In this document: positions 3,810 through 18,716 of the stretch, one piece after another
Layout of the letters: every line of letters begins with the position of its first letter
Numbering within the stretch: the stretch's first letter is position 1
DNA from: a virus
DNA length: 18,766 nucleotides
Strand: one strand, 5' to 3'
UHGV virus genome: UHGV-0147920
Notes under the pieces: model-generated
What the model saw: only the letters and a program-made list of their open reading frames with translations
What the model was told of the DNA's origin: nothing
Database searches by the model: none
Program-made: the position numbers and the translations under genes

Positions 3810-4254
3810 GTTTAAGCGTTTTGAAGACCGGCTGACCGGACTTATTGAATCGCTGTCACCGTCAGGGCGTCGGCGACTGAGTGCCGAACTGGCGAAACGT
3901 CTGCGGCAGAGTCAGCAGCGCCGGGTGATGGCACAGAAAGCCCCGGATGGCACACCCTATGCGCCACGCCAGCAGCAGAGCGCCAGAAAAAAGACTGGCC
4001 GTGTTAAGCGAAAAATGTTTGCGAAACTTATCACCAGTCGTTTTTTGCATATCCGCGCCAGCCCGGAACAGGCATCAATGGAGTTTTACGGCGGGAAGTC
4101 ACCGAAAATCGCCAGTGTGCATCAGTTCGGTCTGTCGGAAGAAAACCGGAAAGACGGTAAGAAAATTGATTATCCGGCGCGTCCTCTGCTCGGCTTTACC
4201 GGTGAGGATGTGCAGATGATTGAAGAGATTATCCTGGCTCACCTTGAGCGTTAG
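3802..4254 (+). CDS. S: tail completion protein S (P2 gpS-like)
   Basis: 150 aa from ATG 3802 to TAG 4252-4254; basic central region; follows R with a 4-nt overlap as in P2. Confidence 0.85.
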   Translation: MNEFKRFEDRLTGLIESLSPSGRRRLSAELAKRLRQSQQRRVMAQKAPDGTPYAPRQQQSARKKTGRVKRKMFAKLITSRFLHIRASPEQASMEFYGGKSPKIASVHQFGLSEENRKDGKKIDYPARPLLGFTGEDVQMIEEIILAHLER

Positions 4255-4283
4255 TTTTATCCAGGCAGAGGCTGATGCGCAAT

Positions 4284-4320
4284 TAAACATTGAGCGGCTG
4301 TGCAGGTCGCTCAATGTTTA
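4284..4320. terminator. putative bidirectional terminator hairpin between convergent S and the minus-strand cargo gene
   Basis: Perfect 12-bp inverted repeat AAACATTGAGCG (4285-4296) / CGCTCAATGTTT (4308-4319), extendable by a T-A pair at 4284/4320, with an 11-nt loop. It lies exactly between the two convergent stop codons (4254 and 4326). The U-tract is short on both strands. Confidence 0.45.
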
Positions 4321-4325
4321 GAGGA

Positions 4326-5111
4326 TTATGAGTGGTTTTTATTTGATGATTTGTATTCTACAACTTTTTTATTGGCGTAAAGGAATTTTGTATATGACAG
4401 AAGTATAACCAGACCTGAAGTGAAATAGACGAGGGATATTATTAATAATGTTTTTCTGTGGCTGTTATTATCTTTAATCTCCTGACTTAACCATTCGGAG
4501 TCCTCCTCGTTTAGCTGTAAGAGCTTATTGCAGGCGATTGCAGGAAGTGTGTCTGTTACAAAAGTGTTCTGCAGTCTCTTGCAATCGGCAATGCTAAAAG
4601 CTTTATAGAACTTATCTGTTTTATTGTCGGAGAACAAAAGAACCTTGTCATTATAAACATGGTACATCATATTTTTATATGGTATGGCTATAGCATCCTC
4701 TACTATGGCAGATTGCTCGTTGTGTATGCAACATGCGAAGGTAATATAAAGAATTCCGGCCAGGACTGCACTCATTGTTTTTGTGATGCATGGCGGTTCT
4801 GTTATGTCTCCCCAGAAGCGAGTAAGGAAAAAATCCGATGTTTTTAGTTTTCCATCAATCAACCCCTGCTGTATCATTTTCACATCTTTGATGCCTGATA
4901 CATTGATTCCGTTAATTATTTTAAATAGTTGAATGTCGCGCCACTCGCGGTCCAGTCTTTTTAATTTTTTATCTGAATATCCAAATTTGAAATAATGTGC
5001 AATAAGCCTCATAAGGTTACTTTTACCAAAGCTAAAAAATGCTAATACTACAAAGACCAAAAGATACAAGACGATTAGCTCCCACACATTAGTCACATTA
5101 TAGCTGACCAT
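4326..5111 (-). CDS. hypothetical low-GC membrane protein (cargo/moron at the S-V junction, P2 orf30 position)
   Basis: 261-aa ORF on the minus strand with a strong AAGGAG ribosome-binding site about 6 nt upstream of ATG (rc of 5118-5123). About 32-35% G+C in sampled lines versus about 58% in flanking tail genes. Predicted TM helices at residues ~10-28, ~113-131 and ~220-240. No family assigned. Confidence 0.75.
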   Translation of the reverse strand: MVSYNVTNVWELIVLYLLVFVVLAFFSFGKSNLMRLIAHYFKFGYSDKKLKRLDREWRDIQLFKIINGINVSGIKDVKMIQQGLIDGKLKTSDFFLTRFWGDITEPPCITKTMSAVLAGILYITFACCIHNEQSAIVEDAIAIPYKNMMYHVYNDKVLLFSDNKTDKFYKAFSIADCKRLQNTFVTDTLPAIACNKLLQLNEEDSEWLSQEIKDNNSHRKTLLIISLVYFTSGLVILLSYTKFLYANKKVVEYKSSNKNHS

Positions 5112-5126
5112 TACGCTCTCCTTGAA

Positions 5127-5146
5127 TGTTGTCTGGTGGTTCTACA
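5127..5146 (+). promoter_or_regulatory. candidate late-promoter activator (Ogr-type) dyad upstream of V
   Basis: TGTTGT-N11-ACA (TGT 5130-5132, ACA 5144-5146) in the 83-bp gap between divergent genes. The same TGTTGT-N11-AC architecture recurs upstream of FI. Spacing is 11, not the 12 I recall for P2 Ogr boxes, and the V ATG is only about 57 bp from the dyad centre. Confidence 0.25.
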
Positions 5147-5194
5147 AATGAATCCAGATAGCATAACTTTTATATATTGTGCAATCTCACATGC

Positions 5195-5830
5195 ATGAAC
5201 ACTCTCGCAAATATTCAGGAACTCGCGCGCGCACTGCGCAACATGATTCGTACTGGCCTTGTCGTCGAAACCGACCTTAACGCCGGTCGCTGCCGTGTGC
5301 AGACCGGCGGCATGTGCACCGACTGGCTTCAGTGGCTGACACATCGTGCCGGGCGTTCGCGCACATGGTGGGCACCTTCCGTGGGGGAACAGGTGCTGAT
5401 TCTGGCCGTGGGCGGTGAACTCGACACGGCGTTCGTTCTGCCGGGGATTTATTCCGGCGATAACCCCGCGCCGTCTGCGTCGGCGGATGCCCTGCACATA
5501 CGTTTCCCTGACGGGGCGGTGATTGAGTATGAACCTGAAACCAGTGCACTGATGGTAAGCGGAATTAAAACGGCCAGCGTGACGGCTTCTGATTCTGTTA
5601 CCGCCACGGTGCCGGTAGTCATGGTGAAAGCGTCAACCCGCATCACCCTGGACACCCCGGAGGTGGTCTGCACCAACAGACTGATTACCGGCACGCTGGA
5701 AGTACAGAAGGGCGGGACGATGCGCGGCAACATTGAACACACCGGCGGTGAACTCTCATCAAACGGTAAGGTACTGCATACCCATAAACACCCCGGCGAC
5801 AGCGGCGGCACAACCGGGGGACCTCTATGA
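5195..5830 (+). CDS. V: baseplate spike/assembly protein V (P2 gpV-like)
   Basis: 211 aa from ATG 5195 (MNTLANIQELARALRNMIRTG...); the ORF-track TTG at 5177 was not used. Gly-rich C-terminus; overlaps the W start (ATGA). Confidence 0.9.
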   Translation: MNTLANIQELARALRNMIRTGLVVETDLNAGRCRVQTGGMCTDWLQWLTHRAGRSRTWWAPSVGEQVLILAVGGELDTAFVLPGIYSGDNPAPSASADALHIRFPDGAVIEYEPETSALMVSGIKTASVTASDSVTATVPVVMVKASTRITLDTPEVVCTNRLITGTLEVQKGGTMRGNIEHTGGELSSNGKVLHTHKHPGDSGGTTGGPL

Positions 5831-7620: not shown

Positions 7621-9939
7621 ATGAGCACAAAATTCAAAACCGTTATCACCACTGCCGGTGTAGCAAAGCTGGCAGCGGCAACCGCACCGGGAGGGCGGAA
7701 GGTCAACATTACCACGATGGCCGTCGGGGATGGCGGTGGTAAATTGCCTGTCCCGGATGCCGGACAGACCGGGCTTATCCATGAAGTCTGGCGACATACG
7801 CTGAACAAAATCAGCCAGGACAAACGAAACAGTAATTATATTATCGCAGAGCTGGTTATTCCGCCGGAGGTGGGCGGTTTCTGGATGCGTGAGCTTGGCC
7901 TGTACGATGATGCGGGAACGTTAATTGCCGTGGCGAACATGGCCGAAAGTTATAAGCCAGCTCTTGCCGAAGGCTCAGGGCGTTCGCAGACCTGTCGCAT
8001 GGTCATCATCGTCAGCAGTGTGGCCTCGGTGGAGCTGACCATTGACACCACAACGGTGATGGCGACACAGGATTACGTTGATGACAAAATTGCAGAGCAC
8101 GAACAGTCACGACGTCACCCGGACGCCTCGCTGACCGCAAAAGGTTTTACTCAGTTAAGCAGTGCGACCAACAGCACGTCTGAAACACTGGCCGCAACGC
8201 CGAAAGCGGTAAAGGCCGCCTATGACCTTGCTAACGGGAAATATACCGCACAGGACGCTACCACAGCGCGAAAAGGTCTTGTCCAGCTCAGTAGTGCCAC
8301 CAACAGCACGTCTGAAACGCTTGCGGCAACGCCAAAGGCGGTTAAGACAGCGTATGACCTTGCTAACGGGAAATACACTGCACAGGACGCCACTACAGCG
8401 CGAAAAGGTCTTGTCCAGCTCAGTAGCGCCACCAACAGCGATTCTGAAACGCTTGCGGCAACACCAAAGGCGGTTAAGACAGCGTATGACCTTGCTAACG
8501 GGAAATACACTGCACAGGATGCCACCACGGCGCGAAAAGGTCTTGTCCAGCTCAGTAGCGCCACCAACAGTGATTCTGAAACCCTCGCGGCAACGCCAAA
8601 AGCAGTGAAGTCTGCCTATGACAATGCTGAAAAACGTCTTCAGAAAGATCAGAACGGTGCGGATATTCCGGGAAAGGATACCTTCACGAAAAATATCGGT
8701 GCCTGTCGTGCTTATAGCGGCGCTTTGAGCACTGAAGCCGGAAACTGGACAACCGCTCAGTTTATTGAATGGCTGGATTCCCGTGGTGCATTTAATCATC
8801 CGTACTGGATGTGCAAAGGCTCATGGTCATATGCAAATAACAAAATCATTACGGATACCGGATGTGGTGATATCCACCTGGCTGGTTGTGTCGTCGAGGT
8901 CATGGGAACTAAATCTGCAATCACTATCCGAGTGACCACGCCGACAACATCAAGTGGTGGCGGTACAACCAGCGCGCAATTCACTTACATTAATCATGGG
9001 GACGGCTACTCCCCCGGCTGGCGTCGTGACTGGAATCGTCAGGGCGACTCAATGACCGGAACGATTAATCAGGATGGCGGAAGCCAGAATGCCTATATGT
9101 CTACGGCCTTATGTTCAGGCACCAGAGGCGGCAAAAAATATCTCAGAAAGTTTCGTGGTGGAGAAGGAGACACTATCTGGCATGAAACAGTACAGGGCGG
9201 GGTAATTCGCTGGGCGACAGGAAACTATGACGCTCAGGAAGAATTATCACTCAGCTCCGCTTATGGTCTCCGTTCAAGAGGTGAGATTACATCACTCAGT
9301 GCTAATGGTCTGCGCATTGCTTATGGCAATTATGGATTCTTTATCAGGAATGATGGCGGCAGCACATATTTAATGCTGACGGCCTCTGGCGATAAATTTG
9401 GGACATGGAACGGTTTAAGACCGCTGACTATCAATAACGCCAATGGCGGAGTGTCAATGGGGCATGGCCTGAGTGTTACAGGTGATATTGTCTCAAGTAC
9501 CAAAGTACGTGCCGGTAGCGGGAAAAAGTTCACGGTCAGCAGCAGCAATACATCCACGAAGGAAGCCGCATTCAATTTGTGGGGAAACTCAAGTCGTCCT
9601 GTGGTGGCTGAATTAGGTGATGATGCAGGCTGGCATTTTTACAGTCAGAGAAATACAGATAACAGCATCACTTTTGCTGTTAACGGGCAGGTATCACCAT
9701 CTAACTATAGTAATTTTGATTCACGCTATGTCCGGGATATCCGGCTTGGTGGTGCTGCCACATACAAACCTGCGAACAATGGCATGACATGGACACATCA
9801 GGCACCGTCCGGGTGTGTATATTCCGGCATTATTGTTCAGGATACCGGCTCAAACTCTGCCGATAACATTGGTGGCATATATTACAGACCGGTGCAGAAA
9901 TACATTAACGGGACATGGTATAACGTAGCGCAGGTATAA
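7621..9939 (+). CDS. H: tail fibre protein H (P2 gpH-like, with expanded internal repeats and a divergent distal domain)
   Basis: 772 aa. The N-terminal ~170 aa (MSTKFKTVITTAGVAKLAAATAPGG...) matches the virion-attachment part of P2 H as I recall it. It is followed by 44-aa tandem repeats and a lower-GC distal domain ending ...YINGTWYNVAQV. Confidence 0.9.
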   Translation: MSTKFKTVITTAGVAKLAAATAPGGRKVNITTMAVGDGGGKLPVPDAGQTGLIHEVWRHTLNKISQDKRNSNYIIAELVIPPEVGGFWMRELGLYDDAGTLIAVANMAESYKPALAEGSGRSQTCRMVIIVSSVASVELTIDTTTVMATQDYVDDKIAEHEQSRRHPDASLTAKGFTQLSSATNSTSETLAATPKAVKAAYDLANGKYTAQDATTARKGLVQLSSATNSTSETLAATPKAVKTAYDLANGKYTAQDATTARKGLVQLSSATNSDSETLAATPKAVKTAYDLANGKYTAQDATTARKGLVQLSSATNSDSETLAATPKAVKSAYDNAEKRLQKDQNGADIPGKDTFTKNIGACRAYSGALSTEAGNWTTAQFIEWLDSRGAFNHPYWMCKGSWSYANNKIITDTGCGDIHLAGCVVEVMGTKSAITIRVTTPTTSSGGGTTSAQFTYINHGDGYSPGWRRDWNRQGDSMTGTINQDGGSQNAYMSTALCSGTRGGKKYLRKFRGGEGDTIWHETVQGGVIRWATGNYDAQEELSLSSAYGLRSRGEITSLSANGLRIAYGNYGFFIRNDGGSTYLMLTASGDKFGTWNGLRPLTINNANGGVSMGHGLSVTGDIVSSTKVRAGSGKKFTVSSSNTSTKEAAFNLWGNSSRPVVAELGDDAGWHFYSQRNTDNSITFAVNGQVSPSNYSNFDSRYVRDIRLGGAATYKPANNGMTWTHQAPSGCVYSGIIVQDTGSNSADNIGGIYYRPVQKYINGTWYNVAQV
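8143..8625 (+). repeat. 132-bp in-frame tandem repeat array (about 3.6 copies) inside tail fibre gene H
   Basis: Copies start at 8143, 8275, 8407 and 8539 (exact 132-nt period). Each encodes G(F/L)(T/V)QLSSATNS(T/D)SETLAATPKAVK(A/T)AYDLANGKYTAQDATTARK. Copies 2 and 3 differ at only a handful of positions. Confidence 0.9.
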
Positions 9940-9942
9940 TTT

Positions 9943-10470
9943 ATGCAGCATTTGATAAATATAACGGCGGGTAATCCAAAAACAGTTGAACAATATCAAT
10001 TGACAAAGGACTTTGATGTTGTCTGGTTTTTTACAGAAGATGGTAAGAACTGGTACGAAGAACAAAAGTATTTTGCTGATGACACGATAAAAATAGCGTA
10101 CGACAAAGATAATATCATCCGCTATGTGGAAAAGGATGTGACAGCTATCAGACCGGATGGATTAAGTGTTGTTGAAGTGCCGGATATTACTGCTAACCGA
10201 CGGGCGGACATTTCAGGGAACTGGATGTTTAAGGACGGTACAGTGATTAAACGAATTTATACGGCAGAGGAATTGCAGCAGCAGGCAGAAAATCGGAAAG
10301 CCAGACTTCTTGCAGATGCTGAATCCGTGATTTTGCCGCTGGAGCGCGCTGTCAGGCTGAATATGGCAACAGATGAGGAGCGCAGTCGACTGGAGGCATG
10401 GGAACGCTACAGTGTTCTGGTCAGTCGTGTGGATCCTGCAAATCCTGAATGGCCGGAAATGCCGCAATAA
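9943..10470 (+). CDS. G: tail fibre assembly chaperone G (Tfa family)
   Basis: 175 aa immediately after H. The N-terminal two-thirds are low-GC and the C-terminal ~60 aa are high-GC, the usual Tfa mosaic pattern. Confidence 0.85.
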
Positions 10471-10552
10471 GTTGTATGAGCTCTGGTGTGAGCTTACATA
10501 TCTATGGCACAGAGTAAAGCCTAATCTGAGAGTCCGCTCTGTGCCAGAAGTA

Positions 10553-10580
10553 GACGCACAAGGTGGGCGTGTCTTTTTCT
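10553..10580 (+). terminator. possible intrinsic terminator closing the V-W-J-I-H-G transcription unit
   Basis: Imperfect GC-rich stem (GACGCAC ... GCGTGTC with one wobble and one mismatch) followed by TCTTTTTCT at 10572-10580, about 85 nt after the G stop. The stem is weak. Confidence 0.3.
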
Positions 10581-10584
10581 TAAG

Positions 10585-12003
10585 CTACATCGGGCTCTTA
10601 TATGGGGAATGAGAGTTTTTGAAACGCGGTTCTTCATGCTTCGGACTGTAAGTTCTTGCATGATTATCTATCACAACTTTACTTCCAAGAATATCTCGAG
10701 CTTCTCCTAACGACCACACAGTAGAAAGATCATTAGTCAAATTTCGATAGAGAGCACGAAACCCCTTGGGTTTTTTAAGATCATATAAGAAATCAGGAAC
10801 TTTAACTTTAAAATTAAAGGTCGGTAGTTTCGGAAGGGAATTAATAGCCGCAACAGTATTGTATACATGTACAAGCTTAGTTACAGGTACACCTTGTCTA
10901 GTCTTGAGCCCATACTTAGTTCGAATATAATCTGATTCTTTCGATACTTCAGTAAGCAATGCTCTTACTGACTTATTAGCTTGAGGCAATTCATTTTCAT
11001 CAAACAAGCGCTTTATTTCTCGCATTTTCTCACGGGCCCTTACAAATTCGTTGTTGTCCCTTATGTTATAAGCAGCTTCAACAATACAACTTGGATCACC
11101 AGTTTCTTTTGCGAGCCATGCCGAAAATAAAGGAAGCGAAGTTGCTGTTGCTACAGCTTTACCACCAGAATGAATATCAATGAGATCATGACTTAACGAA
11201 GTGGAAAAGTTTTCTACAATATGTTTAGCATAGTCAAAACCATACTGACAGTTTTGGCTTAAATATGTCTGTTGATACGCCTGACGTAATGGATATAAAA
11301 AAGTATCTGCTTGAAGGTACTTAGCTGTGAGAGAATAAAATACTGCCCGATTAGCCAGCCATACAAGCGAAGCCACGAATGCTTTGATTGCATCTGATGC
11401 TTCACCAGCAGATGTGCCATCCCCCCATTTTGCTCCGGGAACTTTGTACCCCTTGCGAATAGGGTTGCCAAATCGATCGAGGAGTTCAACATCGCCATTT
11501 GTTCTATTACCAGACTCAGCAGCATCACGCAGTTCTGAAAAAATGGCAGCAGCAATGTTACCATATTTTTCAAACTCCTTACCTCCATCAGATAAGTTCT
11601 TCAGTGTTAGATGATAAACACTTGAACTAATGTCCCATGTACATATGATATGTGTCTGAAGAAGTTCAATTAGTTTTTTAAAATCGTCATTAACAAATGT
11701 TCCACCACGAATTTTAGGTTTCAATGCATCAGATATTTTTTTTGCTTCACTTTCAATTTCATCCAACCCATATTGTGCTTTATCAAGAAATAATATCTCT
11801 CTGAAACTTGAAATCCTACTCTCACGGTACTCTGGAATATAATCATCAACCGCGATAACGCGATCATAGAACAAAATAGACTGTATATAGTTCTCAAATG
11901 CTATTATGTCTGTATCTACTGAGTCCTTCGATCTTGTTTTTACTTTCCCCTCGATTCTTTGGACTGCAGTTAGAGTTGAATTATCAATCAGTGCGTATGT
12001 CAT
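10585..12003 (-). CDS. hypothetical low-GC cargo protein at the G-FI (Z/fun) junction; candidate single-gene anti-phage/exclusion function
   Basis: Uninterrupted 472-aa ORF on the minus strand (ATG at rc 12001-12003, stop at rc 10585-10587) with AAGGAA about 6 nt upstream. About 32-37% G+C in sampled lines versus about 58% backbone. No TM segments, no clear Walker A and no R-x(4-6)-H motif. Flanked by 115-bp and 410-bp non-coding spacers. Confidence 0.8.
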   Translation of the reverse strand: MTYALIDNSTLTAVQRIEGKVKTRSKDSVDTDIIAFENYIQSILFYDRVIAVDDYIPEYRESRISSFREILFLDKAQYGLDEIESEAKKISDALKPKIRGGTFVNDDFKKLIELLQTHIICTWDISSSVYHLTLKNLSDGGKEFEKYGNIAAAIFSELRDAAESGNRTNGDVELLDRFGNPIRKGYKVPGAKWGDGTSAGEASDAIKAFVASLVWLANRAVFYSLTAKYLQADTFLYPLRQAYQQTYLSQNCQYGFDYAKHIVENFSTSLSHDLIDIHSGGKAVATATSLPLFSAWLAKETGDPSCIVEAAYNIRDNNEFVRAREKMREIKRLFDENELPQANKSVRALLTEVSKESDYIRTKYGLKTRQGVPVTKLVHVYNTVAAINSLPKLPTFNFKVKVPDFLYDLKKPKGFRALYRNLTNDLSTVWSLGEARDILGSKVVIDNHARTYSPKHEEPRFKNSHSPYKSPM

Positions 12004-12031
12004 TTACATTCCTTAAATAAAAAACATTAAT

Positions 12032-12074
12032 GGTTGCTCCAAAAATACTAGCAACCTTATTTCAGTGAAGTCAA
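12032..12074 (-). promoter_or_regulatory. candidate sigma70-type promoter with overlapping palindromic operator-like element for the 472-aa cargo gene
   Basis: On the minus strand: TTGACT (rc of 12069-12074), 18-nt spacer, TAGTAT (rc of 12045-12050). A 7-bp inverted repeat GGTTGCT (12032-12038) / AGCAACC (12050-12056), spaced 11 nt, overlaps the -10 and the predicted transcript start. Confidence 0.3.
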
Positions 12075-12289
12075 TTTTTTAACATTAATCATTTACACAC
12101 GCTTGAAAAGTGATCGCTGAAAATGGCATTCACTACATTATCAAAGTTCCCATCGAAGATAATCGAAATTTTTCCCGGTAGCAGATATCGTGAGATTTAA
12201 CGCTTTTCGCTCATAGCAGGCTGTCAGATTTGATAGCGTTTGGGCTATGTAAACTGTCAGTCGGAAAATGAGTGTGTACAAATCAGGAC

Positions 12290-12318
12290 ATGCGGGCGAA
12301 TTGCCCGCATTTTCTTTA
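12290..12318 (+). terminator. rho-independent terminator-like hairpin (+ strand) at the right boundary of the cargo island
   Basis: 8-bp GC-rich stem ATGCGGGC (12290-12297) / GCCCGCAT (12303-12310) with a 5-nt loop GAATT, followed directly by TTTCTTTAT (12311-12319). No + strand gene lies upstream of it. Confidence 0.55.
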
Positions 12319-12320
12319 TC

Positions 12321-12340
12321 TGTTGTTTCATCCACTGACC
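12321..12340 (+). promoter_or_regulatory. candidate late-promoter activator (Ogr-type) dyad upstream of FI
   Basis: TGTTGT-N11-ACC (TGT 12324-12326, ACC 12338-12340), centred about 82 bp upstream of the FI ATG and just downstream of the terminator hairpin. Same architecture as the element upstream of V; one mismatch to the TGT...ACA half-sites. Confidence 0.3.
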
Positions 12341-12413
12341 AGCCAGGTCAAATAGCGTCTCATGCACTGCCCAACAGAAAATAGTTGCACCCATTAACCA
12401 CGGAGTTAAACGG

Positions 12414-13604
12414 ATGAGTGACTATCATCATGGCGTGCAGGTGCTGGAGATTAACGACGGCACCCGCGTCATTTCCACCGTATCCACTGCCATTGTCGGC
12501 ATGGTCTGTACGGCCAGCGATGCGGATGCGGAATCCTTCCCCCTCAATAAACCGGTGCTGATTACCAATGTGCAGAGTGCAATTGCAAAGGCCGGTAAAA
12601 AAGGCACGCTGGCGGCATCGTTGCAGGCCATCGCCGACCAGTCAAAACCGGTCACCGTTGTTGTGCGCGTGGAGGACGGCACCGGCGACGACGAAGAAAC
12701 GAAACTTGCGCAGACCGTTTCCAATATCATCGGCACCACCGACGAAAACGGTCAGTACACCGGACTGAAAGCCCTGCTGGCGGCGGAGTCGGTAACCGGT
12801 GTTAAACCGCGTATTCTCGGTGTGCCGGGACTGGATACCAAAGAGGTGGCTGTTGCACTGGCATCCGTCTGTCAGAAGCTGCGCGCTTTCGGATATATCA
12901 GCGCATGGGGCTGTAAGACCATTTCCGAGGTGAAAGCCTACCGCCAGAATTTCAGCCAGCGTGAGCTGATGGTCATCTGGCCGGATTTCCTCGCATGGGA
13001 TACGGTCACCAGTACCACCGCCACCGCGTATGCCACCGCCCGTGCGCTGGGTCTGCGCGCTAAAATCGACCAGGAGCAGGGCTGGCATAAAACGCTGTCC
13101 AACGTCGGGGTAAACGGTGTTACCGGCATCAGCGCATCTGTATTCTGGGATTTGCAGGAGTCCGGCACCGATGCTGACCTGCTTAACGAGTCAGGCGTCA
13201 CTACGCTGATTCGCCGCGACGGTTTCCGATTCTGGGGTAACCGTACCTGCTCTGATGACCCGCTGTTCCTCTTTGAAAACTACACCCGCACCGCGCAGGT
13301 GATGGCCGACACGATGGCTGAGGCGCACATGTGGGCGGTGGACAAGCCCATCACCGCAACGCTGATTCGCGACATCGTTGACGGCATCAATGCCAAATTC
13401 CGTGAGCTGAAAACAAACGGCTATATCGTGGATGCGACCTGCTGGTTCAGCGAAGAATCCAACGATGCGGAAACCCTCAAGGCCGGAAAACTGTATATCG
13501 ACTACGACTATACACCGGTGCCTCCTCTTGAAAACCTGACCCTGCGCCAGCGTATTACCGATAAATACCTGGCAAATCTGGTCACCTTGGTTAACAGCAA
13601 TTAA
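12414..13604 (+). CDS. FI: contractile tail sheath protein FI (P2 gpFI-like)
   Basis: 396 aa with GGAG at 12402-12405; length and position match P2 FI. Confidence 0.9.
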   Translation: MSDYHHGVQVLEINDGTRVISTVSTAIVGMVCTASDADAESFPLNKPVLITNVQSAIAKAGKKGTLAASLQAIADQSKPVTVVVRVEDGTGDDEETKLAQTVSNIIGTTDENGQYTGLKALLAAESVTGVKPRILGVPGLDTKEVAVALASVCQKLRAFGYISAWGCKTISEVKAYRQNFSQRELMVIWPDFLAWDTVTSTTATAYATARALGLRAKIDQEQGWHKTLSNVGVNGVTGISASVFWDLQESGTDADLLNESGVTTLIRRDGFRFWGNRTCSDDPLFLFENYTRTAQVMADTMAEAHMWAVDKPITATLIRDIVDGINAKFRELKTNGYIVDATCWFSEESNDAETLKAGKLYIDYDYTPVPPLENLTLRQRITDKYLANLVTLVNSN

Positions 13605-17553: not shown

Positions 17554-18716
17554 TGCTGGATGCGCTGACATTTGATGCAGGCAGTACGCTGACGCCGGAT
17601 TACATGCTGATGCTCGACAGCAGGGATATTACCGGCAATATCAGCGACCGTCTGATGAGCATGACCCTGACGGATAACCGGGGCTTTGAGGCTGACCAGC
17701 TTGATATTGAACTGAACGACGCCGACGGGCAGGTAGGGCTACCGGTTCGTGGCGCTGTCCTGACGGTGTATATCGGCTGGAAAGGTTTTGCCCTGGTATG
17801 CAAAGGGAAATTTACCGTTGATGAGGTTGAACACCGGGGCGCACCGGATGTGGTCTCCATCCGCGCCCGGAGTGCAGATTTTCGCGGGACGCTCAATTCC
17901 CGCCGGGAAGGCTCCTGGCATGACACCACGCTCGGTGCGATTGTTGAGGCGATAGCCACCCGTAACAGGCTGGAAGCCAGTGTCGCTCCGTCACTGGCCG
18001 GAATTAAAATCCCGCACATCGACCAGTCGCAGGAGTCTGATGCGAAATTCCTGACCCGTCTTGCAGAACGCAACGGCGGAGAGGTGTCGGTAAAAATGGG
18101 AAAACTGTTGTTTCTCAAAGCGGGGCAGGGGGTGACGGCCAGCGGTAAAAAAATCCCGCAGATTACCATCACCCGCAGCGATGGCGACCGTCACCATTTT
18201 GCGATTGCTGACCGTGGAGCCTACACCGGCGTAACGGCAAAGTGGCTACACACCAAAGACCCGAAGCCGCAAAAGCAGAAGGTAAAACTGAAACGCAAAA
18301 AGAAAGAGAAACACCTGCGCGCACTGGAGCACCCGAAAGCAAAACCGGTCACGCAGAAGAAAGCGCCAAAAGTACCGGAAGGGCGCGAAGGTGAATACAT
18401 GGCCGGTGAGGCTGACAACGTTTTTGCCCTGACTACGGTATATGCCACGAAAGCGCAGGCTATGCGCGCCGCTCAGGCGAAGTGGGATAAACTGCAACGG
18501 GGCGTTGCGGAGTTCTCCATCAGCCTGGCTACCGGTCGGGCAGATATTTACACGGAAACACCGGTTAAAGTGTCAGGCTTTAAGCGCGTCATAGATGAGC
18601 AGGACTGGACCATCACTAAGGTGACACATTGTCTCAATAATAGCGGCTTCACGACGTCCTTGGAGCTTGAGGTCAGGCTTTCTGATGTGGAGTACGAAAC
18701 AGAAGATGATGAGTGA
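17553..18716 (+). CDS. D: tail protein D (P2 gpD-like)
   Basis: 387 aa with an internal Lys-rich low-complexity stretch (KDPKPQKQKVKLKRKKKEKH...); last gene of the FI-D tail unit; same length as P2 D. Confidence 0.9.
   Translation: MLDALTFDAGSTLTPDYMLMLDSRDITGNISDRLMSMTLTDNRGFEADQLDIELNDADGQVGLPVRGAVLTVYIGWKGFALVCKGKFTVDEVEHRGAPDVVSIRARSADFRGTLNSRREGSWHDTTLGAIVEAIATRNRLEASVAPSLAGIKIPHIDQSQESDAKFLTRLAERNGGEVSVKMGKLLFLKAGQGVTASGKKIPQITITRSDGDRHHFAIADRGAYTGVTAKWLHTKDPKPQKQKVKLKRKKKEKHLRALEHPKAKPVTQKKAPKVPEGREGEYMAGEADNVFALTTVYATKAQAMRAAQAKWDKLQRGVAEFSISLATGRADIYTETPVKVSGFKRVIDEQDWTITKVTHCLNNSGFTTSLELEVRLSDVEYETEDDE

Follow-up and report, generated by a model that had tools for sequence, protein, structure and literature searches.

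What is the 410-bp non-coding spacer that separates the tail sheath gene FI from the oppositely oriented gene before it in the virus genome UHGV-0147920, and why does it hold a strong + strand terminator? The stretch analysed here (referred to as the window) comprises 18,766 nucleotides of a P2-like (Peduovirus) prophage and covers its late tail region. Here, the spacer (12004-12413) lies between a 472-aa gene on the - strand, called here the cargo gene, and FI. An earlier note on this DNA had interpreted a palindrome in the spacer as a repressor operator or a 5'-leader hairpin of a possibly regulated cargo gene, and the terminator as an orphan that either insulates the late promoter of FI (pF) or ends an unannotated small RNA. 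Our comparative analysis points, with a probability of roughly 0.8, to a different origin: a 1,811-bp cassette (10471-12281) was inserted in the short region between the tail-fibre assembly gene G and FI, its right-hand junction forms the spacer, and the hairpin is the displaced terminator of the V...H-G operon.

The native G-FI region and its terminator

In P2-like phages the interval between G and FI has been described as "moron position 2"; it often holds an oppositely oriented gene and is occupied by neaT in CFT073 (PMC3573123). The P2 record NC_001895 has fun(Z) at the same position. For comparison, 80 loci around FI homologues were taken from viral contigs, and the 230 nt upstream of FI, representing 73 distinct sequences, were aligned. 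The hairpin was found in 52 of the 73, preceded in 40 by an inverted repeat that is described below as the right end of the cassette, and standing without this repeat in 12. At ten of these twelve repeat-free loci the stop codon of G is followed by the hairpin within a few nucleotides (7-8 in close relatives), the whole G-FI interval measuring 128-132 nt in the loci L028, L044, L060, L082 and L084 and 129-164 nt in L090 and L092, with the same order of G stop and hairpin in L055, L088 and L089. The empty site reads ...ccgcaaTAAacacaGGCGGGC...GCCCGCCttttcttt, followed by the pF site. Since the intervals of cassette-free phages are this short, positions 12285-12413 of the window (129 nt) constitute the complete native intergenic region and 10471-12284 inserted DNA; and since the hairpin adjoins the G stop in these relatives, 12290-12318 would be the terminator of the tail-fibre operon, displaced by 1.8 kb. 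Thus, the statement that no + strand open reading frame (ORF) precedes the terminator holds locally and fails at a larger distance, where the + strand tail-fibre operon ends at 10470, and the description of the terminator as an orphan has to be given up.

The strong intrinsic terminator that had been reported on the + strand at 12290-12318 was recovered by folding, with an energy of -17.9 kcal/mol (z = -6.2) that none of 200 shuffled sequences reached, and was the top-ranked terminator-like site of the whole 18.8-kb window. Its core stem of 8 bp, six of them G-C, pairs 12290-12297 with 12303-12310 around a 5-nt loop, and outer pairs join 12285-12288 with 12312-12315; the version returned by the terminator scan has 9 pairs and a 3-nt loop. 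The U-rich tract TTTTCTTT occupies 12311-12318 on the + strand and has no counterpart on the - strand, which makes the predicted terminator unidirectional. One pair of the stem carries a compensatory change in the window, U-A replacing the consensus G-C, and one-step intermediates were observed as G/A in L020 and L050 and as G-U in L056, while in distant relatives (e.g. L089) the position is taken by a hairpin with another sequence. Furthermore, the T-run reaches position 12318 and is followed from about 12319 by the activator site of pF, so that the hairpin would stop + strand transcription ahead of the promoter. Insulation of the FI late promoter, as the earlier note had supposed, is therefore a reasonable reading of this arrangement.

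The 3' end of a Hin-type invertase gene replaced this configuration in 16 of the 73 distinct sequences, in which the hairpin is absent. These loci (L016, L017, L022, L038, L039, L041, L043, L045, L048, L049, L052, L053, L067, L073, L079 and L085) were identified by a sequence signature whose translation resembles the C-terminus of a Hin-type DNA invertase, and they have neither repeat nor terminator before pF. A VWKLDRLG-like motif was also noticed by eye in L087 and L091.

Origin of the left part of the spacer

Homologues of the cargo protein with 80-91% amino acid identity are encoded in Lonsdalea, Pantoea, Serratia, IMG/VR contigs and Logan assemblies. None of these loci has G or FI nearby; their neighbours are an OLD-like nuclease, genes for conjugation or genes of the HEPN type. 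All share a stretch of about 215 nt upstream of the gene that reaches to the inner end of the repeat, and their alignment with the window extends from the ATG of the cargo gene as far as about 12220; this stretch is missing in a Pectobacterium relative (78%) and in more distant relatives (71-74%). Searches of phage records, on the other side, matched the right half alone, from 12201-12207 on, and 12201-12413 shares 93-96% identity with Wphi, L-413C and other P2-like phages. As the left part travels with the gene and the right part matches phages, 12004-12197 is assigned to cassette DNA, 12198-12281 to the right repeat of the cassette and the remainder to the phage backbone. The exact cassette was detected in 7 of 5,426 E. 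coli genomes, and its flanks in 1,017.

Pairwise identity of the upstream 215 nt to the window amounts to 0.67-0.84, and that of the four-fold degenerate sites of the adjacent gene to 0.65-0.80. Being so near to the identity of silent sites, the upstream DNA is co-inherited with the gene and not visibly more conserved than such sites. Free variation of the spacer among relatives, which the earlier note had named as a ground for refutation, is hence half true: the cassette half is co-inherited with the gene, and it diverges at about the synonymous rate. No conserved fold was obtained on either strand of the upstream cassette DNA (RNAalifold consensus of -5.3 kcal/mol with 0 compensatory pairs on the + strand and of -4.5 kcal/mol on the cargo-sense strand), and no conserved ORF was present in it, all three sense frames being rich in stops and the sole + strand mini-ORF being broken by an indel in L010 and L311. 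Metagenome contigs scanned with the invariant 16-mer ACRATATCTGCTACCG yielded, among the matches listed, chance hits only, none of which resembled the 222-nt upstream region by blastn, and a scan of viral contigs with the same 16-mer re-found known loci only. The cargo cassette was not found on plasmids.

These comparisons define where the modules meet, and they show that the hairpin is homologous to the terminator next to G in cassette-free phages and how it is placed relative to pF. The site also conforms to the moron concept of Juhala and Hendrix, who reportedly defined a moron as an extra non-essential gene between conserved phage genes, absent in some relatives, of deviant composition and equipped with its own signals. 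Empty sites exist, the cargo varies and lies on both strands in intervals of 1.1-2.9 kb, the G+C content of the G-FI stretch is 0.34-0.42 vs 0.55-0.60, and the signals comprise a promoter-like site and an inward-facing terminator. The G-FI interval of the window resembles the Z/fun locus of other P2-like phages in its site, its low G+C, its single oppositely oriented non-essential gene (cf. fun(Z) and neaT) and its flanking inverted repeats (AJ512676, AJ512683), and differs from it in that the cargo is another, uncharacterised 472-aa protein and the cassette is rare. The coordinates of all features are collected in Table 1.

Table 1. Position, strand and supporting detail of the features discussed, in the order of the window.
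Feature	Coordinates	Strand	Detail
Spike gene V	5177-5830		Pfam Phage_base_V and Phage_spike
Tail-fibre gene H	7621-9939		
Tail-fibre assembly gene G	9943-10470	+	Last gene before the end of the tail-fibre operon at 10470
G stop codon TAA	10468-10470	+	Borders the insertion on the left, where the target triplet lies; directly before the terminator in empty-site relatives
Left terminal inverted repeat	10471-10555		"Left inverted repeat" in the GenBank records of P2-EC58 and P2-EC30
Cassette-borne hairpin with T-run	10553-10580	+	Fold; just past the cargo stop, facing incoming V-operon transcription
Cargo gene	10585-12003	-	472 aa; phrog_13435; - strand ORF between G and FI
Shine-Dalgarno sequence AAGGAA	12009-12014	-	Cargo ATG follows after 5 nt; all relatives have AAGGA or GAGG
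7-bp palindrome GGTTGCT-N11-AGCAACC	12032-12038 and 12050-12056 (arms)		Perfect inverted repeat; 11-nt loop
Best sigma-70-like cargo promoter, TTGACT-18-TGcTAGTAT	12045-12074	-	Promoter scan
Cassette DNA upstream of the promoter, AT-rich	12075-12197		Aligns with eight relatives outside any P2 tail context
Right terminal inverted repeat	12198-12281		Annotated "right inverted repeat"; phage similarity starts at 12201-12207
Predicted intrinsic terminator of the V-W-J-I-H-G late operon	12285-12318	+	Fold; adjoins the G stop in cassette-free relatives
pF activator (Ogr/Delta) binding region	12319-12346	+	Aligned from NC_001895 misc_feature 17555-17583
pF -10 region and start (~12388-12390)	12377-12390	+	Aligned from NC_001895 start-site feature 17626-17628
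FI ribosome-binding site (GGAG) and spacer	12402-12413	+	Invariant in all 73 relatives; FI starts at 12414
Sheath gene FI	12414-13604		Tube gene FII is also among the ORFs of the window

Transcription across the junction

Several observations weigh against this interpretation of the locus. The hairpin of reference P2 that is homologous to the pF-side terminator is weaker (-11.3 kcal/mol, z -1.3), and the P2 RefSeq record leaves it unannotated and marks the hairpin beside fun(Z) as "putative terminator for V operon". The right junction of P2-like phages (ATC AGG) is not the exact sequence of the empty site, the window copy having TAA on its left and ATC on its right. The candidate promoter of the cargo gene is a match to the consensus at chance level, with a -10 element that is not conserved, and both termination at 12318 and the start site of the cargo gene are predictions made from sequence. 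With regard to the junction, ATC in place of TAA indicates that the insertion in the P2-like lineage is old, so that the ends of the cassette are not provable from that lineage alone. The annotation of P2 concerns a feature analogous to the cassette-borne hairpin at 10553-10580 of the window. This hairpin is weak (-6.4 kcal/mol, z -0.56) and disrupted in the E. coli copy of the window, and its equivalent forms a perfect 8-bp stem in most relatives (L006, L098, L099, L310), which lie in other contexts. The window departs from P2 as annotated, where the terminator of the V operon is placed inside the moron, while the cassette-free relatives have the pF-side hairpin as a native element. From 12319 to 12413 the window is homologous to P2 pF with its Ogr/Delta site, and the hairpin has the standard anatomy of an intrinsic terminator.

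If the spacer is the junction of an inserted cassette, we infer that RNA polymerase of the V operon passing the weak hairpin at 10553-10580 would cross the cargo gene in antisense and stop at 12318, which would keep pF dependent on its Ogr activator and silent in the lysogen. The cargo gene would be transcribed in the lysogen from a sigma-70 promoter of its own, of constitutive type, the best candidate for which lies at 12074-12045. For annotation, this reading corrects a small gap, as the strong hairpin beside pF would be the native end of the P2-type tail-fibre operon, and it shows annotation pipelines how a terminator of the ordinary kind may seem orphaned once a moron has been inserted before it. 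It also removes the leads towards a small RNA and a regulated operator; beyond this, the finding has little consequence. More deserving of further work is the family of cassettes to which the repeats lead.

A family of related cassettes

The two arms of the window align with each other in inverted orientation, and the left arm aligns with arms from plasmids as well. The Z-region records of P2-EC58 (AJ512683) and P2-EC30 (AJ512676) place a left repeat just after G and a right repeat before the FI side. Altogether, an alignment of about 85 nt unites fifteen arms, left ones and reverse complements of right ones, taken from phages, a Pantoea contig and four plasmids; the sources are the window, P2, P2-EC30, P2-EC58, the Pantoea contig L310 and plasmids of Klebsiella and Yersinia, together with a Salmonella plasmid that contributed its right arm only. 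At their outer ends the arms read T(A/T)A followed by GYTGTAT.AGCTC, and at their inner ends AATCTGACAG...AGCGGAC; the inner ends, over about 22 nt, are also kept by the cargo cassette in other contexts. Related cassettes or arms occur on plasmids of Klebsiella, Yersinia, Salmonella and Serratia and on the Pantoea contig. The latter, whose copy lies at ~2700-4560 of L310, shares window positions 10489-12234 at 86% identity, that is, the cargo and most of both arms, outside P2 tail genes, and visual alignment suggests that its arms are complete. Proteins carried between such repeats include fun(Z), the ORFs of P2-EC30 and P2-EC58, a HEPN/RES-NTD protein and a DUF1311 protein. The 471-aa ORF1 of P2-EC30 was considered as the same cargo inverted between the repeats and proved to be unrelated (BLASTP E = 2.1).

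In the Klebsiella plasmid pKSB2_6C_1 (L317, 1069-2730), a copy of 1,662 bp lies between the TAA stop of a gene and the terminator of that gene. The copy is flanked by TAA on both sides, and the second TAA is followed by the hairpin GCCCCATAATCGGGGC-TTTTT. The exact empty site with a single TAA is present in 12 related plasmids of about 40 kb as one uninterrupted 603-nt match of 89.7-99.7% identity. The copy on the Yersinia plasmid pYR7 (L318, 2308-3585) has TTA on both sides and carries the HEPN/RES-NTD protein. Judged by these alignments, the flanking repeats are ~85-bp terminal inverted repeats of a non-autonomous mobile cassette family. Seven cassette copies were inspected and no transposase was seen in or beside them; no search for an autonomous partner was made.

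Taking these observations further, we consider it an even chance that the G-FI moron site holds a resident copy of a non-autonomous cargo-transposon family with ~85-bp terminal inverted repeats, a 3-bp TAA/TTA duplication and interchangeable defence-like genes, moving among P2-like phages, phage-plasmids, conjugative plasmids and integrative and conjugative elements (ICEs) of Enterobacterales and possibly preferring the gap between stop codon and terminator. Like non-autonomous transposons with terminal inverted repeats, such as miniature inverted-repeat transposable elements (MITEs), the family has ~85-bp terminal repeats and no internal transposase, and it shows an empty site with TAA duplication at one copy and TTA at both ends of another. 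Unlike MITE-like elements, the cassettes carry 1-2 kb of variable, defence-like cargo and are not miniature, no cognate transposase was identified for them, and the right triplet of the window is ATC. Three-bp TWA duplications are typical of Tourist/PIF-Harbinger elements and of some subgroups of the IS5 family. The repeats as such were already annotated in GenBank records of 2002-2004, and the title of the paper behind these annotations, Nilsson et al. 2004 (Mol Biol Evol 21:1), agrees with this interpretation. If it is true that the repeats end a transposable cassette family, they would offer a sequence handle for accessory and anti-phage genes in phages and plasmids, and the family would be a concrete mechanism for the acquisition of cargo at the G-FI site of P2.

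The preference for the gap between stop codon and terminator hairpin, which would complement the cassette reading, deserves separate consideration. It is suggested by two independent insertions, the order being TAA stop of G, element and hairpin in P2-like phages and TAA stop of the gene, element, TAA and hairpin in pKSB2_6C_1. The Yersinia pYR7 copy, however, has no hairpin at either junction, and the comparison covers three sites only. Moreover, in the 128-nt region that holds terminator and promoter, only the few nucleotides after the stop (7-8 in close relatives) tolerate insertion, so that selection alone suffices to explain the position in the phages. Active choice of such targets is thus rather doubtful.

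The cargo of pKSB2_6C_1 (L317, 1875-2618) consists of a 143-aa ORF with no Pfam match and, behind it, a perfect tandem array in which a 35-nt unit is repeated 21.3 times and which calls to mind the repeat arrays of type III toxin-antitoxin systems.

Cargo promoter, palindrome and small-RNA proposal

The best sigma-70-like candidate for the cargo promoter matches the consensus at 9 of 12 positions and has an upstream TG; sites of this quality number 2 locally vs 2.8 expected, and 15 vs 15.6 in the entire window. Its -35 element is kept as TTGAYT in seven of eight relatives. The -10 element is degenerate in the relatives (TGGTTT, TGATTT, TGAAAT), with A at its second position only in the window and in L100, and a looser scan of nine orthologous upstream regions revealed no consistently placed strong promoter.

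The palindrome, described in the earlier note as lying over the predicted -10 (TAGTAT) and the start of the cargo gene, was found at exactly that place. Its frequency is not above chance: perfect 7-bp inverted repeats with loops of 3-20 nt occur 0.71 times per dinucleotide-shuffled 410-nt spacer, with a probability of 0.41 for at least one, and 1.05 times per 410 nt in the whole window. In eight relatives that have the same gene the arms read, e.g., GATTATT and GGTGATC, and no DNA dyad was seen at the site in these sequences, in which about 4 of 7 positions match by eye; the repeat is perfect only in the E. coli cassette. Accordingly, the palindrome has no demonstrable role.

Of the functions that could be assigned to it, a hairpin within an extended 5' leader of the cargo transcript, made from an upstream promoter at about -85 to -95 and modulating translation or stability, survives best and is nevertheless improbable. 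Since the predicted -10 places the start near 12038, the arm at 12050-12056 would stay outside the RNA, and a leader hairpin made from that promoter is excluded; what is left of the earlier leader proposal is a weak possibility tied to an upstream start site. In several relatives a -10-like block, TAAAAT, does end at about -82 to -94, so that the region would be transcribed, and in cargo-sense RNA 84% of the arm cells of nine sequences are pairable when G-U is allowed, register 0 performing better than slid registers and the helix being included in the sense-strand consensus of RNAalifold. This pairing, however, is not above that of column shuffles (81.8% expected; 106 of 500 shuffles reached the observed value), two-sided changes of the arms occur only between the window and all other sequences, single-sequence folds of the relatives do not reproduce the hairpin, and the sense-strand consensus has a total energy of just -4.5 kcal/mol. 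In the window, the upstream TATAAAAT block has decayed to TGTAAAT, and transcription from the better promoter would begin within the hairpin.

A protein operator repressing the cargo promoter is still harder to credit and must be called very improbable. The 7-bp dyad symmetry is perfect, one arm abutting the predicted -10 and the other lying at the predicted start, as in operators of the lac or LexA type that cover -10 and +1. Unlike those operators, the half-site is short and at chance level and occurs nowhere else in the window (2 matches in all vs 2.7 expected), the dyad is not conserved as DNA in the eight relatives, where, moreover, the -10 varies, and the single-gene cassette encodes no regulator. 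Additionally, the element works in phage, plasmid and ICE contexts, in which a common host-element repressor is not expected. The operator proposal thus finds no support.

An unannotated + strand small RNA within 12075-12318 is extremely improbable: although the strong + strand terminator has no adjacent + strand ORF, 12075-12290 contained no + strand promoter-like site in the scan and just 8/12 matches, unconserved in relatives, in a looser one, so that nothing suggests a separate RNA using this terminator, no Rfam family reached its gathering score (chance-level matches at E > 2 only), the + strand consensus of RNAalifold described above has no compensatory pair, the transcript would fuse cassette DNA (to 12197), the transposon end (12198-12281) and phage backbone in a combination found only in this prophage lineage, and termination of the G operon fully explains the hairpin. 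The displaced operon terminator next to the right end of the cassette thus remains the preferred account of the spacer.

Cargo protein and other observations on the window

The predicted structure of the cargo protein is mediocre, with a predicted local distance difference test score (pLDDT) of 61, and its PIN-like matches are weak. Homologues in Bacteroidetes (~35% identity) have a short upstream ORF of 118-138 aa, which abuts their start codon or overlaps it (L011, 3588-4004, with equivalents in L012-L014). The upstream ORF of L011 scores as a GGDEF domain, which suggests that the ORF pair represents a two-gene nucleotide-signalling version of the system, and two DDE transposase gene copies flank the gene pair of L011. 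The 215 nt upstream of the cargo gene were also examined as a decayed remnant of such a GGDEF-like partner gene, a candidate that was rejected since the Bacteroidetes partners, compared by tblastn with the upstream regions of the enterobacterial loci, produced no match below E = 0.7.

The spacer holds no credible ORF. Two small - strand ORFs, at 12141-12335 (64 aa) and 12257-12394 (45 aa), span the repeat, the terminator and pF across the module boundaries, and several phage records label the homologous stretch "hypothetical protein". As they cross functional non-coding elements, both ORFs are probably artefacts of annotation.

A second island of low G+C (0.36-0.45) was observed at about 4260-5170 of the window, between a tail gene ending at 4254 and V. 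It holds a 261-aa ORF on the - strand (4326-5111) with no Pfam match, together with a cluster of promoter-like sites, and is probably another moron site.

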